NCBI GenBank assembly: GCA_964353625.1
Contig: CAYGWT010000078.1
Coordinates: forward strand, 1 to 41,059
Direction of reading: 5' to 3'
DNA length: 41,059 nt
DNA from: an uncultured Candidatus Bathyarchaeia archaeon
GTDB taxonomy: Archaea; Thermoproteota; Bathyarchaeia; 40CM-2-53-6
The position numbers and the translations under genes were made by a program. This document shows, one piece after another, positions 8,245 to 40,558 of the stretch. The notes beneath the pieces were generated by a model. The model was not told the DNA's origin. It made no database searches and saw only the letters and a program-made list of their open reading frames with translations. Numbering within the stretch: the first letter of the stretch is position 1; each line of letters opens with the position of its first letter.

Positions 8245-8541
8245 TTGGGCAGATCGAGAATCCTTGGAGAACCTCAGGGCATCAAAGTCAGTGATAGGAT
8301 GCTTGCGGAAGCTCTCAGAAAATCAGGACTGAGGCAAGAGCTACCGCATCGTACGACCCGTCAGGACTGCGCGAACGCAGTTGAAGCGCTTCTCGTGTAC
8401 GGGTACCTGAACAAGCTGGTTTCGCTAGCGGATTCAGTTGAACAAATAGCCGCTGCGCCGGATTCGCCCATCGACGGTTTAGTTCAGCTGATCAAGACGG
8501 TAGCGAACAAGATTGAAGAGCGGAAGTCAAACACCGCATGA
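8245..8541 (+). CDS. Small RNase III-fold-like protein (tentative); 5' end unresolved
   Basis: ANAVEALLVYGYL resembles the second RNase III motif. The in-frame upstream sequence 8185-8244 encodes VLADSKLAKLGDAYINFVFS, resembling the first motif (..LGDA). The frame is open from 8113, but no ATG/GTG/TTG occurs before 8245. Confidence 0.4.
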   Translation: MGRSRILGEPQGIKVSDRMLAEALRKSGLRQELPHRTTRQDCANAVEALLVYGYLNKLVSLADSVEQIAAAPDSPIDGLVQLIKTVANKIEERKSNTA

Positions 8542-9110
8542 TCAAGAAAGAGATACGCGTTCTCGGAGTAGCTCGCGTTTCGCCTCACCCAAATAATGCG
8601 ACTTCCACCCAAGTTGTGGGTATGGTGTACAGAGGAAACCGTTGGCTCGAGGGCGTGATGCGAGCCGTCATACCACGAGACGTGATGAATCTCACTCGTA
8701 GGATCATTGAGATGACTGTCAAATCCCCTCATTATCTCCAGCTCAGAGTCATCGTACTGGACGAGTTGATCGCCAAATCCGGGAGCTACATCGACATTCG
8801 CGTCCTCAACAAGAAAACGAGACTCCCAGTGGTTGTTGCCCTGCGTCGAAAGATACCCATCAAGCGTCTGCAAGAGAGTCGAATGGTGCACCGACGCGTG
8901 GTGAGAATATTTTCTGACTTGCCCTATGTGAAGTGGAGACGCGCAGCAAAGACGTTCTTCGTCTACTTCGCCGGGCTGAGAGGGGTCGATCTCAATGAGC
9001 TTCTCGAAGTCTGTGCTTCTAGGGAAGGGGTTCCAGAAGCGGCTAGGGTTGCTAGGATCACGTGTTCCTCCCTTGAAGCTACTATCCGGGCGCGAGCCCC
9101 AGCGAGATGA
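8538..9110 (+). CDS. UPF0215/DUF99 family protein (endonuclease V-like fold)
   Basis: MIKKEIRVLGVA... N-terminus and a length (190 aa) typical of archaeal DUF99. ATGA overlap with the upstream ORF. Confidence 0.6.
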   Translation: MIKKEIRVLGVARVSPHPNNATSTQVVGMVYRGNRWLEGVMRAVIPRDVMNLTRRIIEMTVKSPHYLQLRVIVLDELIAKSGSYIDIRVLNKKTRLPVVVALRRKIPIKRLQESRMVHRRVVRIFSDLPYVKWRRAAKTFFVYFAGLRGVDLNELLEVCASREGVPEAARVARITCSSLEATIRARAPAR

Positions 9111-37184: not shown

Positions 37185-39449
37185 CTACGAAAGCGAGTAT
37201 ATTGCCCTCTTCTCTATCGTGCGCTTCTTGCCCTCAGGCCACAACGCGACAGGTATGTAGGTAGATGATGACCGTCCATATTGTCCAACATTATCAGATG
37301 CGCACGAACTGCAACTTGTAACCAATCCTGCGATAACTCGATTACAATTCCTGCAAAACGAGTAAGCTCTGGAATAAGTCATGAACCGGATGCCGCTGGC
37401 AGCTGCTTCGTGCGAAACCGATAAGAGTGCTTCCGTGGTTGCCTTCGAGTCCACAGAAATCACGGCCAAATGGCCTCCCGGAGTCAGAGTCTGAAGCATC
37501 CCTTCGATAGCTAGCCTTTCACTGAGAGGAACCTTTGATGTCAAAGGAACACCTGGCATATCTGTGTAGAACGGGGAGTTCCTGCCACCTTGGGCAGACA
37601 CCGTGCTCTTGCCGTAATGTTCAACATCGAGTTCGGCCAGTCTTGAGGCTGCTTCATCTCCGGGTCTTTCCGACAGTACCACGCGCATCCCTAGGTTCTC
37701 TGATGCGGCCTCGGTTTGCTTTCGCAACTCTTGGAGGATCTTCTCTCCGAAAACTAGTGAGTCTTTCTTCAACTCGCTACCGGTATGGGCAAGGCAAGCC
37801 TCGTTCAGTCCCAAGATCGCCACTGCATAGGTAGCTACTTTCTCACGGAAGTACGGGGTGCCTTGACCTGATCCGAAGAGCAGCGGGAGTGCAGTTTGTT
37901 TTAGTCTATCAACCATGAACTTCCGCTTGATCTTGAAGGCCTCTAATGCCAAAGTAAGTGAATCTGTCATTGATTTGAAGAATCTATCATCGTCTCTTCG
38001 TGCTTCATAAGCAAGTCTAGGCAAGTTGAGAAAGACCGTTGTCATACAACCTGTCCTATAGCAGTCGGACTCCCATTGCTTGCCCCAATCGTCCGAAAGT
38101 CTCAGACCCGTGGCTGTGTAGCAGTCGGGTGAGCCGTCTCGAAGAAACGCAATGTACGGTAGCGCCCGAGATGCCGCTAGTTCGTGAGTTTTGAGAACGC
38201 GAGATCGAGTTTCATCTTTTCTCTCGGCCGAGTCCCGAATCTTGAAGATCAACCTGGGGCTCGCCAACAGGTTGGTCGATGTTACTCGTGAAGTCGCATC
38301 AAGTAGATCATCAAGAACCACCCTCGTCTCCTCGTGGTAGTCACCGTAAACTCCCATCGTTCTACCTCCTGGCCCGATGGCCTCAACACTCTCTAGGAAC
38401 TCAGGCACTCCATATTCGAGCCCAAGAGAAAGTCCGGGCTGAGGGGACCCCAGTGGCAGGTCGCGTTCTATGGATGAAAGAAAGAGCGCAAGCGATTCCC
38501 TGACCGAGTCCTCAGAGGTATTCTTAACGTAGGGTGCTAGGAAGACATTGAATAGGTCAAAACTTTGTTCGCCTGATATCTCTGTAATTCCGAGACGGTA
38601 GACGCTCTGGATCAATGCCAAAGCTGCGTTGAGGCTTTGTGGTGGTTTCAATCCAACGAGCCCGTTTTTCAGGAAATATCGGAGATCATGTTGGATTTCG
38701 CTCGGCTTTAGGGGCCAGCTCTCAAGGTCGGATATGTGGATTTGGCCTGAGATGTGCGCGTCTGCGATCTCACGTGGCAAGCACTCCAGCAGGACATACT
38801 CTCCCAAGACAGAAGCTCCTGCGGTCCTCTGAACGTAGTCAGTTGTCAACCCGAGTTCTCCGGTCGAATGGAGAAGCTGAGTGACATCGTATACCGGCAT
38901 TCCAACACGCGTCAGCTTATGCCTGTATTCTTCGAGTTTCTTTTCGATGAGAATCGCATTAACAAACTCGCGGATCAAGGCCGAAGTCAGGTACGAAGTT
39001 CTAAGCTTGATTAGCCGGTCTTCTGCTTCTGCCGCTATTTCGTCCGCAAGTTCCTGGGGAACGCCTGCTTCAACAACCAGTGACTTCGCTATCTTGCTTC
39101 TGTGGAAGTCCTCGATCGCTAGCCGCGAGGTTCTAACGAATAATTTGCCGCGTTTCACACTGACGTATTCTTCTAGGTCTCTCGCGAAATGTATTACCAT
39201 ATCTCCCAGTTCAGTTATCTCGTACTTCTTTGCGCGCTTATCCGAACTGATTAGTCCGGCTTCAGTCAGACTTCTTAGGTGGTATACGAATTTTCCAGCG
39301 TCACGGACAGGATCCAGCTTCAGAGCCGACATGATCTCGGTATATGGCAACGCGCCTTTCGTGGAGAGAAGTCGGAGTACTTGCATGCGAAGCGGAGCGG
39401 ATGCAGCGTCGAATATGGCCGCTCCAAGTTTCTCGAAGGAACGCAGCAT
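37185..39449 (-). CDS. Winged-helix / ATP-cone / class III (anaerobic) ribonucleotide reductase-like protein
   Basis: N-terminal ArsR-like wHTH (LRMQVLRLLSTKGALPYTEIMSAL...YHLRSLTEAGLI). ATP-cone-like segment (LFVRTSRLAIEDFHRSKIAKSL...). NrdD-type motifs AHISGQIHISDL, GEQSFDLFNVFLAPYV and TTVFLNLPRLA. C-terminal CxxC...CxxC ribbon. The expected RxxGY glycyl-radical motif reads RSSSTY. Confidence 0.7.
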   Translation of the reverse strand: MLRSFEKLGAAIFDAASAPLRMQVLRLLSTKGALPYTEIMSALKLDPVRDAGKFVYHLRSLTEAGLISSDKRAKKYEITELGDMVIHFARDLEEYVSVKRGKLFVRTSRLAIEDFHRSKIAKSLVVEAGVPQELADEIAAEAEDRLIKLRTSYLTSALIREFVNAILIEKKLEEYRHKLTRVGMPVYDVTQLLHSTGELGLTTDYVQRTAGASVLGEYVLLECLPREIADAHISGQIHISDLESWPLKPSEIQHDLRYFLKNGLVGLKPPQSLNAALALIQSVYRLGITEISGEQSFDLFNVFLAPYVKNTSEDSVRESLALFLSSIERDLPLGSPQPGLSLGLEYGVPEFLESVEAIGPGGRTMGVYGDYHEETRVVLDDLLDATSRVTSTNLLASPRLIFKIRDSAERKDETRSRVLKTHELAASRALPYIAFLRDGSPDCYTATGLRLSDDWGKQWESDCYRTGCMTTVFLNLPRLAYEARRDDDRFFKSMTDSLTLALEAFKIKRKFMVDRLKQTALPLLFGSGQGTPYFREKVATYAVAILGLNEACLAHTGSELKKDSLVFGEKILQELRKQTEAASENLGMRVVLSERPGDEAASRLAELDVEHYGKSTVSAQGGRNSPFYTDMPGVPLTSKVPLSERLAIEGMLQTLTPGGHLAVISVDSKATTEALLSVSHEAAASGIRFMTYSRAYSFCRNCNRVIAGLVTSCSSCASDNVGQYGRSSSTYIPVALWPEGKKRTIEKRAIYSLS

Positions 39450-39640
39450 ACTGCAGGCATTGTGCGGAGTACTCTAAAAAAGTGTACTGATACCTCTGGT
39501 CGCTAGATTGGATATTCAGAACCCTGGAGATCGGTCACGTGTAGTGGAATCAACTGCACAGCTCGAGCTATTCTGAGAACGCCAGATGTCGACGAACGCT
39601 TTTATCCCGTAGCTTTCCACGACTAGGCAAGCGTCGAAGA

Positions 39641-40558
39641 ATGAATGAAAGACTAGTTTCCACTGCTCGCCCTCAATCAGCTGAAGGAGTACAGTACCAC
39701 ATTTCAGCGAAGCGAGGACAGGTAGGTGACTATGTCTTTCTGCCTGGCGATCCGGATCGCGTGCCGAAGATAGCTAAGTTCTGGGACTCAGCTCACGAAG
39801 TATCTTCTCACAGAGAATACCGAATATGGTCTGGAATGGTCAGCGGAACGATGGTGTCGGCCTGTTCTACGGGCATTGGTTGTCCAGCCACGGCCATTGC
39901 AATCGAAGAGCTGGGCAGAATCGGCGCGAAGACATTCATTCGAGTTGGTTCCTGCGGATCACTGCTGCCGGACCTGGAATGTGGAGACCTAGGAATATTC
40001 ACTGCCGCCGTTCGTCTTGATGGTACCGGCGAGCAATATGTCACCGCTGCATATCCCGTCGCTGCAAGCCACGAAGTGGTCCTCGCACTTATCGAGGCTG
40101 CCGAGAAACTGGGCAAGAAGTACAGAGCAGGGTATACCGCGTCAACCGACAGCTTCTATGCGGGCCAAGGTCGGCCCGGCATTGAAGATTATCTGCCTAC
40201 AGATGCTGAGACGCTCATTGAGAGGCTTCGAAGACAGCGTGTGATCACAATGGCAAAGGAAGCTTCTGTGATCTTCACCTTGGCGGGCATCTATGGATTC
40301 CGCAGCGGCTGCGTACTCGCGGTGTACGTGAACAGAACCACGAACAAGTTTGAGGCCAAAGGGGAAGAGGCCGCATGCAAAGTTGCAGTGGAAGCGGTTC
40401 GAATCCTAATCAAATGGGACCTGGATCGTCAAAGAGCCGGGAAAAGATACCTGGTCACCAAGCCTCAGCTACTGATATGTGCCCCAGTTACATGGTGGGG
40501 CGGCGTTTTCTCTTGGACTCTCGATCAGGCCATGACATGGCTGACAGGAGCGCCGTAG
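39641..40558 (+). CDS. Nucleoside phosphorylase, uridine phosphorylase-like (PNP_UDP_1 family)
   Basis: FLPGDPDRVPKIA, SSHREYRIWSG, STGIGCPATAIAIEELGRIGAKTFIRVGSCGS. Confidence 0.78.
   Translation: MNERLVSTARPQSAEGVQYHISAKRGQVGDYVFLPGDPDRVPKIAKFWDSAHEVSSHREYRIWSGMVSGTMVSACSTGIGCPATAIAIEELGRIGAKTFIRVGSCGSLLPDLECGDLGIFTAAVRLDGTGEQYVTAAYPVAASHEVVLALIEAAEKLGKKYRAGYTASTDSFYAGQGRPGIEDYLPTDAETLIERLRRQRVITMAKEASVIFTLAGIYGFRSGCVLAVYVNRTTNKFEAKGEEAACKVAVEAVRILIKWDLDRQRAGKRYLVTKPQLLICAPVTWWGGVFSWTLDQAMTWLTGAP

Follow-up and report, generated by a model that had tools for sequence, protein, structure and literature searches.

Outside the protein family described here, the ATP-cone is essentially limited to ribonucleotide reductases (RNRs) and the regulator NrdR (PMC9110341, PMC11226230), and NrdR itself is rare in archaea (PMC9110341). 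Here, we analyzed a stretch of 41,059 nucleotides (contig CAYGWT010000078.1; hereafter, the window) from an uncultured Bathyarchaeia archaeon and, within it, a gene whose product joins a winged helix-turn-helix (wHTH) domain and an ATP-cone to a homologue of the class III RNR, NrdD, in which the residues needed for glycyl-radical chemistry are replaced. Our preferred reading, to which we attach a probability of about 0.6, is that this catalytically dead NrdD paralogue would sense nucleotides and control the transcription of nrdD and of its own gene, as suggested by sequence comparisons and structure models. It is supported by the family-wide loss of catalytic residues, the NrdD, wHTH and cone folds, purifying selection, the placement in tandem with nrdD and a cis-element common to both promoters, and it agrees with a preliminary description of the window, made from the sequence, which had proposed a dead RNR acting as a regulator analogous to NrdR.

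The likeness to NrdR lies in an ATP-cone coupled to a DNA-binding module, in the linkage of the gene to RNR genes, in a conserved element that overlaps the core promoter of the RNR gene and that of the regulator's own gene, and in the logic that we propose, in which repression would depend on the nucleotide pool and on the oligomer state. However, NrdR (~150 aa) has an N-terminal zinc ribbon followed by the ATP-cone, whereas the window protein begins with a winged helix of the ArsR/SmtB type, carries a dead NrdD body of ~550 residues and has, as its sole zinc ribbon, the C-terminal one of NrdD. NrdR binds paired NrdR boxes at RNR promoters in dependence on ATP/dATP; of these, only an analogue was found here, the ACTACAR/T-run element upstream of nrdD and of the gene itself (see below). 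No NrdR model was found among the NCBIfam or Pfam matches of the window protein and, apart from the cone, the resemblance is convergent, not homologous.

With the class III enzymes (T4, E. coli, T. maritima, P. copri, S. thermophilus), the window protein shares the barrel fold, the ATP-cone, the NLPR motif and the four-cysteine zinc ribbon; it differs from them in the replacement of the radical glycine by serine, of the thiyl-radical cysteine by leucine, of the second cysteine by glutamate and of HxHD by HISD, as well as in the added N-terminal wHTH. Its first ~100 residues resemble the ArsR/SmtB repressors (CzrA, CadC, HlyU, SrnR) in fold and topology, with a match to HTH_20 above the cut-off, but those are stand-alone dimers of ~100–120 aa, usually metal or redox sensors, while the domain in the window is fused to a 650-aa relic of a nucleotide enzyme. 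In BirA, PutA and NadR, an enzyme fold serves as the ligand-sensing or oligomerization part of a DNA-binding regulator and is mostly still catalytic; unlike these, the enzyme part of the window protein is dead and derives from a glycyl-radical enzyme. In the literature on glycyl-radical enzymes, RNR phylogeny, NrdR and P. copri NrdD, we found neither a wHTH-fused or dead NrdD nor a regulator derived from a glycyl-radical enzyme.

Domains, catalytic residues and selection

The gene is an intact open reading frame (ORF) with an ATG start (coordinates of all features in Table 1). The preliminary description had read from it an ArsR-like winged helix, an ATP-cone, an NrdD body with several hallmark motifs and a C-terminal CxxC-x10-CxxC ribbon, and had placed a serine at the radical glycine and read DCYTATGLRL in place of the usual Cys-rich motif of the finger loop; each of these statements held. 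The motifs lie at residues 235–242 (GQIHISDL), 293–308 (GEQSFDLFNVFLAPYV), 442–451 (DCYTATGLRL), 472–480 (VFLNLPRLA), 699–716 (CRNC-x10-CSSC) and 724–742 (the degenerate glycyl-radical motif), and all three modules were recovered with Pfam, in agreement with AlphaFold2 (AF2) and Foldseek.

Residues 11–87 matched the Pfam models DUF7347 (32.1 bits, cut-off 27.6) and HTH_20 (27.6 bits, cut-off 27.0), while other wHTH models remained below their cut-offs (HTH_5, 15.9 bits vs. 22; NCBIfam HTH_metalloreg, 29.3 bits vs. 55). An AF2 model of residues 1–200 gave the winged-helix order α1-α2-α3-αR-β-β-α5 at a predicted local distance difference test score (pLDDT) of 92–96, and Foldseek matched it to HlyU, CzrA, CadC, SrnR, ArsR and PagR with template-modelling (TM) scores of 0.62–0.74 and root-mean-square deviations of 1.6–3.0 Å. 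The preliminary description had allowed that this N-terminus might not be a DNA-binding fold; as the fold matches are ArsR/SmtB repressors and ATP-cones, that doubt falls away.

The cone was found by Pfam at residues 105–175 (26.1 bits, cut-off 25.8) and appeared in the same AF2 model as a β-hairpin (104–114) followed by a helical bundle (pLDDT 75–94), which Foldseek matched to the ATP-cones of NrdR (9a6n, 7p37, 9fvr), NrdD, NrdB and NrdA. Since it is too divergent for pairwise sequence search (a phmmer query with only this segment matched nothing meaningful among PDB sequences), its identity rests on Pfam and fold. Behind it, residues 213–751 matched Pfam NRDD with 238 bits (cut-off 26.2), whereas the NCBIfam NrdD equivalog TIGR02487 scored 260.1 bits, below its cut-off of 326.35. 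The full-length AF2 model (pLDDT 80 overall, 85–95 across the body) has the ten-stranded barrel of NrdD and other glycyl-radical enzymes; its body matched the class III RNRs of T4, T. maritima and P. copri with TM scores of 0.72–0.77 (1h78, 4coj, 8p2s), and other glycyl-radical enzymes far lower.

In order to fix the register of the catalytic residues, a profile of 27 family members was aligned to solved NrdDs. In this alignment, RIVGYLVPV of T. maritima pairs with rssatllPl, which places Ser729 (codon TCT, 37263–37265) at the radical glycine and Thr730 where NrdD has the conserved tyrosine that follows it. The finger-loop thiyl-radical cysteine (T4 C290) and the second active-site cysteine (T4 C79) are likewise replaced; NrdD subclasses differ in their use of the latter. 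Also altered is the HxHD motif, which binds the substrate triphosphate in NrdD (PMC11226230). Both the NLPR motif and the zinc ribbon are kept. We dropped T4 Asn311 as a discriminating residue, as it aligns to Ser/Cys in dead copies and genuine bathyarchaeal NrdDs alike. Because four defining catalytic features were tested and none was found, we regard the window protein as a homologue of NrdD and not as a functional member; judged by its residues, it cannot carry out glycyl-radical chemistry.

The preliminary description had called for a survey of the fusion across phyla. When 1.84 billion cluster representatives were searched exhaustively with a profile, 745 matches below 1e-30 were obtained, of which the best 150 were analyzed. 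The winged-helix architecture occurred in 76 of these 150 representatives (clusters at 50% identity), and its named members come from metagenome-assembled genomes (MAGs) of Bathyarchaeota, "Thermoprotei" and Nitrososphaerota/Thaumarchaeota. None of the 75 wHTH representatives covering the site has a cysteine at the C79 position, and only 8 of 67 have any cysteine in the finger-loop window. An alignable glycine motif was absent or truncated in 45 of the 76, while among the 31 alignable ones the radical site was a glycine in seven, one of them with Gly-Tyr. By contrast, all four zinc-ribbon cysteines are present in every covering representative bar P0164 (CCCG). Representatives without the winged helix were mostly canonical (C...GCR/QCCR...RITGY...WNxGK).

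Ten representatives without a wHTH match (P0173, P0190, P0195, P0214, P0221, P0231, P0233, P0249, P0252 and P0261) were also devoid of the catalytic cysteines and/or glycine. In many of them, ~80 unassigned N-terminal residues precede the profile match, which begins at about residue 84. The ten may represent additional lineages of dead NrdD whose N-terminal domain is different or divergent.

These results bear on the possibility that the protein is still a working RNR, or another enzyme, acting by an unconventional radical or catalytic route. Named family members are labelled in databases as anaerobic RNR, ArsR-family regulator, HTH protein or hypothetical, and the annotation as anaerobic ribonucleoside-triphosphate reductase, together with the retained NrdD fold and NLPR motif, would favor such an activity. 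Nevertheless, the radical glycine, the thiyl cysteine and the second cysteine are all replaced with no convergence of the wHTH family on any alternative residue, many members lack the entire glycyl-radical tail, the HxHD and TPAE motifs are degenerate, the score falls short of the NrdD equivalog model, and genuine NrdD paralogues in the same genomes (see below) retain every residue. We therefore consider this explanation very improbable.

The window gene has an orthologue with 97% identity in a Candidatus Bathyarchaeota MAG (L001), and all 27 related loci come from Bathyarchaeia-type MAGs. Against this orthologue, dN/dS was 0.085 overall (dS 0.13), which indicates a maintained protein under strong purifying selection and not a decaying gene. 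In more distant comparisons, where dS is saturated, dN/dS was 0.07–0.10 for the body and 0.01–0.05 for the wHTH and cone, the cone and linker being the most strongly conserved segment (ω about 0.01). The N-terminal module is far better conserved than the body, e.g., 77% vs. 46% identity for the same pair.

That the gene is a pseudogene in decay, or an artefact of assembly or annotation, is thus refuted by intact homologues, family size and dN/dS, and we give this explanation practically no weight. What would speak for it is that the copies in two long-read MAGs (L026:10001-12269 and L027:10001-12242) are split into two to three reading frames; these breaks could be assembly frameshift errors or real pseudogenization in those lineages. 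However, no break interrupts the reading frame of the window gene or of more than 100 homologues, dN/dS lies at 0.05–0.10, the family comprises 76 divergent cluster representatives, and at least 20 independent metagenomes from sediment and groundwater contain the sequence of the window gene itself.

Tandem nrdD and the shared promoter element

At locus L022, a second NrdD-like gene lies directly downstream of the wHTH copy and bears the motifs of a genuine enzyme (QCCR, CxxC...CxxC and SRITGYY...GWNAGK). By employing this genuine NrdD as a query with exact peptide patterns, 73 archaeal nrdD loci were collected. Tandem arrangements were counted in the 29 Bathyarchaeia nrdD loci whose upstream sequence extends to 5 kb or more, four others being too short to judge. 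In 24 of the 29, a gene for wHTH, cone and NrdD-like body lies immediately upstream, on the same strand and 200–400 nt away; the other five are without it. The arrangement is also present on a complete chromosome (L038), where the upstream gene matches DUF7347, ATP-cone (31.6 bits) and NRDD. Pfam NRDD scores were 543 (L022) and 523 bits (L038) for the genuine NrdDs vs. 238 and 201 bits for the dead copies.

As a within-genome control, we aligned 20 tandem pairs of wHTH copy and genuine NrdD. The genuine partners read IHIHD/E at the HxH(D/E) motif, RPFCQEHDL in the C79 region, SQCCRL at the finger loop, QTPAES at the TPAE motif and SRITGYY...GWNAGK at the glycine motif. In the wHTH copies, by contrast, the HxH(D/E) motif is lost or variable, no cysteine is found in the C79 region or the finger loop, the TPAE motif is lost or altered, and the glycine motif is degenerate, often with the whole tail gone. 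NLPR and the zinc ribbon are retained in both alike. Common to both copies is also an unusual cone signature, VRTS[R/K]...E.F...[K/R]I...PLIRE...YTRLG.P, which is more strongly conserved in the dead copies. The dead copies have their closest relatives, at about 30% identity, in the genuine NrdDs encoded by the same archaeal genomes. In the simplest history, nrdD would have been duplicated in tandem, after which one copy would have been fused to a winged helix and lost its chemistry. Two NrdD paralogues close together, with no winged helix, were observed in Altiarchaeota and a Woesearchaeota MAG (L060:2435-6936, L061:3560-8031 and L076:6004-11694); at L060 and L061, both paralogues have an ATP-cone.

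The preliminary description had pointed to the absence of a nearby activase. Pfam scans of 29 further window ORFs indeed revealed no NrdG, radical S-adenosylmethionine (SAM) protein or second RNR in the window, whose sole CxxxCxxC motif sits in an antisense shadow ORF. As evidence, however, this is uninformative, because genuine bathyarchaeal nrdD has no adjacent nrdG either; none was found near the tandem nrdD of L038.

Directly upstream of the window-type gene, one copy of a 17-mer with the family consensus ACTACAnTTTTTTAAAC is found in the same place at each related locus; its distance to the ATG is 33–34 nt for the close clade and about 60 nt for the distant one. In the window, the TATA-like run begins 33 nt ahead of the start codon, a spacing that would suit a leaderless mRNA; when RNA-seq runs that could map the transcription start were sought, only DNA metagenomes turned up. 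The intergenic regions upstream of genuine nrdD hold the conserved block ACTACAGAATTTTATACAGTTCTTTCTAAAAATTTTAAGT. A joint pattern (ACTACAR, 0–3 nt, T-run) was searched in 1.24 Mb of fetched loci plus the window and gave 29 matches, all on the coding strand, where about one was expected and shuffles gave 0–3. Nineteen of them precede a wHTH dead copy, ten a genuine nrdD and none any other gene. As no match precedes a third type of gene, the element is not a generic promoter consensus, and its interpretation as the generic transcription factor B recognition element (BRE) of these genomes was ruled out. The element overlaps a TATA-like box, and archaeal repressors commonly act where the operator overlaps such a box. 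The tandem placement upstream of genuine nrdD and the cis-element common to both promoters are new here.

Within the window, AGTAC-N11-GTACT flanks the T-run in the manner of an ArsR-type palindromic operator, but its arms are not conserved in other clades and no palindrome is therefore claimed. In the nrdD promoters, TACAG occurs twice, 12 nt apart, which is only suggestive. A search of all GTDB species genomes with ACTACARRWTTTTATACA, the nrdD-type operator block, gave, among the matches listed, chance matches in AT-rich bacteria and no new regulon member; four of the five Bathyarchaeia matches listed were nrdD promoters already collected, and the fifth (L116) was incomplete. The genuine nrdD is also preceded by a conserved upstream region or leader of ~150–200 nt (L038:5790-5990 and equivalents in L035, L042, L044, L046-L049 and L053), in which the ACTACAG block has TGTCAATTTC upstream of it and TGAAAgtTCTAAG and TGCTGCGGGGGTTTT downstream. 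As a scan of this leader against Rfam gave no family, it could be a leader RNA element or hold further protein-binding sites.

Adjacency to a genuine nrdD in most Bathyarchaeia would also suit a regulator at the protein level, which forms heterodimers or higher oligomers with genuine NrdD or another nucleotide enzyme, tunes the activity of that enzyme and employs its wHTH as a protein–protein or oligomerization module. The retained NrdD fold is in line with this, as is the fact that NrdD is a dimer in which the ATP-cone drives oligomer changes (PMC11226230). We nevertheless hold it to be unlikely: the family is maintained in lineages in which nrdD is neither adjacent nor detected, the window's clade among them; no other part of the protein is as conserved as its wHTH, which has the canonical DNA-binding fold of ArsR/SmtB; and a cis-element common to both promoters suits a DNA-binding role better.

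Table 1. Features of the wHTH–NrdD-like gene, its product and its flanks in the window, with strand and supporting evidence.
Feature	Coordinates	Strand	Evidence
wHTH / ATP-cone / dead-NrdD gene, 754 aa	37185..39449	(-)	ORF, Pfam, dN/dS
ArsR/SmtB-type winged helix, residues ~11–99	39153..39419	(-)	Pfam, AF2, Foldseek
ATP-cone, residues ~103–180, starting with VRTSR	38910..39143	(-)	Pfam, AF2 topology, Foldseek, signature in common with genuine NrdD
NrdD-like α/β-barrel body without radical machinery, residues ~201–695	37365..38849	(-)	Pfam, NCBIfam, Foldseek
Ser240 replacing the second His of HxHD (H238-I-S240-D241)	38730..38732	(-)	Alignment to P. copri IHIHD
Glu251 at the position of T4 NrdD Cys79	38697..38699	(-)	Profile alignment, T4 N-C79-C vs. 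n-e-i
Leu449 at the finger-loop thiyl-radical Cys (T4 C290)	38103..38105	(-)	Family tGlr aligned with MGCR of T4 and S. thermophilus
C-terminal zinc ribbon, Cys699/702/713/716	37302..37355	(-)	Invariant in family alignment
Degenerate glycyl-radical motif YGRSSSTYIPVALWPEGKK	37224..37280	(-)	Alignment to T. maritima RIVGYLVPV and P. copri RITGYLVG
Conserved promoter/operator-like element AGTACACTTTTTTAGAGTACT	39468..39488	(-)	Single window match, 0.04 expected
PNP_UDP_1 nucleoside phosphorylase, divergent neighbor	39641..40558	(+)	Pfam; synteny only in L001-L004, L006-L008

Genomic neighborhood

The window is a core chromosomal region that encodes RNA polymerase B and A, NusA-KH, PCNA, both primase subunits, GINS and diphthamide synthase. 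Amid these core informational genes are an Endo_dU (PF01949) endonuclease gene (8538–9110, plus strand) and a match to the 'putative phage metallopeptidase' family (PF18894; 5079–5540, plus strand).

The gene is flanked by the divergent nucleoside phosphorylase, beyond which an incomplete ORF runs from ~40901 to the window end and belongs to the isochorismatase/nicotinamidase family, as judged from its Pfam-verified orthologue at L004. The preliminary description had drawn on this phosphorylase and pncA context. Both genes are present, but their link to the window-type gene holds only in the close, genus-level clade (L001-L004, L006-L008), and the phosphorylase lacks the promoter element on its side. 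Most loci of this clade also have a Bmp/PnrA-type ABC transporter downstream, which is absent from the window and L001. In the clade at 52–55% identity, a HEAT-repeat gene lies upstream and pyrB and pyrI downstream. There, two further genes always separate the wHTH–NrdD-like gene from pyrB (L013:12267-13525, kept in L009-L021 and L026-L027); they encode ~160 aa with an HEYLH motif and ~250 aa, with no Pfam match for either.

Since these genes vary between clades and share no operator, the nucleotide-metabolism neighborhood is weak context; phosphorylase, pncA, Bmp transporter and pyrBI were accordingly rejected as regulon members, as they have no shared element and their synteny is clade-specific. 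On the phosphorylase side, a conserved TATA-like box of its own (CGCTTTTATCC, plus strand, 39597–39607) lies about 30 nt before the phosphorylase ATG, so that both divergent genes may be leaderless with separate core promoters.

Another reading is that the protein is a wHTH transcription factor without nucleotide sensing by the cone, in which the body would be only a dimerization scaffold or a sensor of another ligand and the regulon would be one of nucleoside salvage or pyrimidine synthesis and not RNR. The phosphorylase, pncA-like and Bmp/PnrA-type neighbors of the close clade, like pyrB/pyrI of the distant one, are in line with this, as are the borderline cone score and the variation of the HxHD and TPAE motifs, which makes binding of NTP at the former active site improbable. 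Yet the cone and linker are the segment under the strongest conservation, the cis-element is common only to nrdD and the gene itself, and the salvage and pyr neighborhoods differ from clade to clade. Taken together, this appears to us a fairly unlikely account.

Proposed function and its meaning for archaeal RNR genes

For the preferred reading of a nucleotide-sensing transcription factor, we propose the following course. After tandem duplication of nrdD and fusion of one copy to a wHTH, the protein would form dimers or higher oligomers via its NrdD body, as NrdD does. The ATP-cone would read the ATP/dATP pool and shift the oligomer state or the position of the wHTH, which would bind the ACTACAR/TATA element and block the access of TBP and TFB. 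When dNTPs are plentiful, nrdD and the gene itself would thus be repressed. In the window's lineage, with no adjacent nrdD, the protein would at least regulate its own gene and may control other nucleotide genes.

Several observations weigh against this reading. DNA binding, nucleotide sensing and regulation by the window protein are what we infer from sequence and structure models. The Pfam score of the cone barely exceeds its cut-off, and T-S stands at its canonical K-R position, as it does in the genuine NrdDs of the same genomes. The overlap with the TATA-like box means that part of the element's conservation reflects basal promoter function, and the shared element could have been inherited from the duplication and be bound by another factor. 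The phosphorylase side of the window's intergenic region carries no copy of the element. Finally, a pattern-based, non-exhaustive search found no genuine nrdD nearby or in MAGs with the window-type gene, that of L022 excepted.

On a broader scale, we put forward tentatively, at somewhat less than even odds, that nrdD was duplicated in tandem and that one whole glycyl-radical enzyme then became the counterpart of NrdR that archaea otherwise seem to lack, with the dead RNRs widespread in Thermoproteota as its descendants. The ancestral cone, possibly together with the specificity site and the oligomer switching of NrdD, would read dNTP pools, and the fused winged helix, at an operator that overlaps the TATA box, would turn this signal into repression of nrdD and of the family's own gene. 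Lineages without an adjacent nrdD, such as the window's, would have kept the regulator, possibly rewired to other genes of nucleotide metabolism.

In public databases, hundreds of proteins of this family bear the annotation "anaerobic ribonucleoside-triphosphate reductase", and metabolic reconstructions of Bathyarchaeia and related uncultured archaea that count dead copies as class III RNR, and hence as anaerobic dNTP synthesis, are probably wrong for genomes like the window's. If the proposed function is true, this would be the first pseudoenzyme of a glycyl-radical enzyme or RNR with a regulatory role; it would also be a clear case of the evolution of an enzyme into a transcription factor, because in many genomes the gene of the ancestor, nrdD, still stands next to that of the derivative. 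Transcriptional control of archaeal RNR genes is largely unexplained, and the family offers a testable candidate for it, with a predicted operator.

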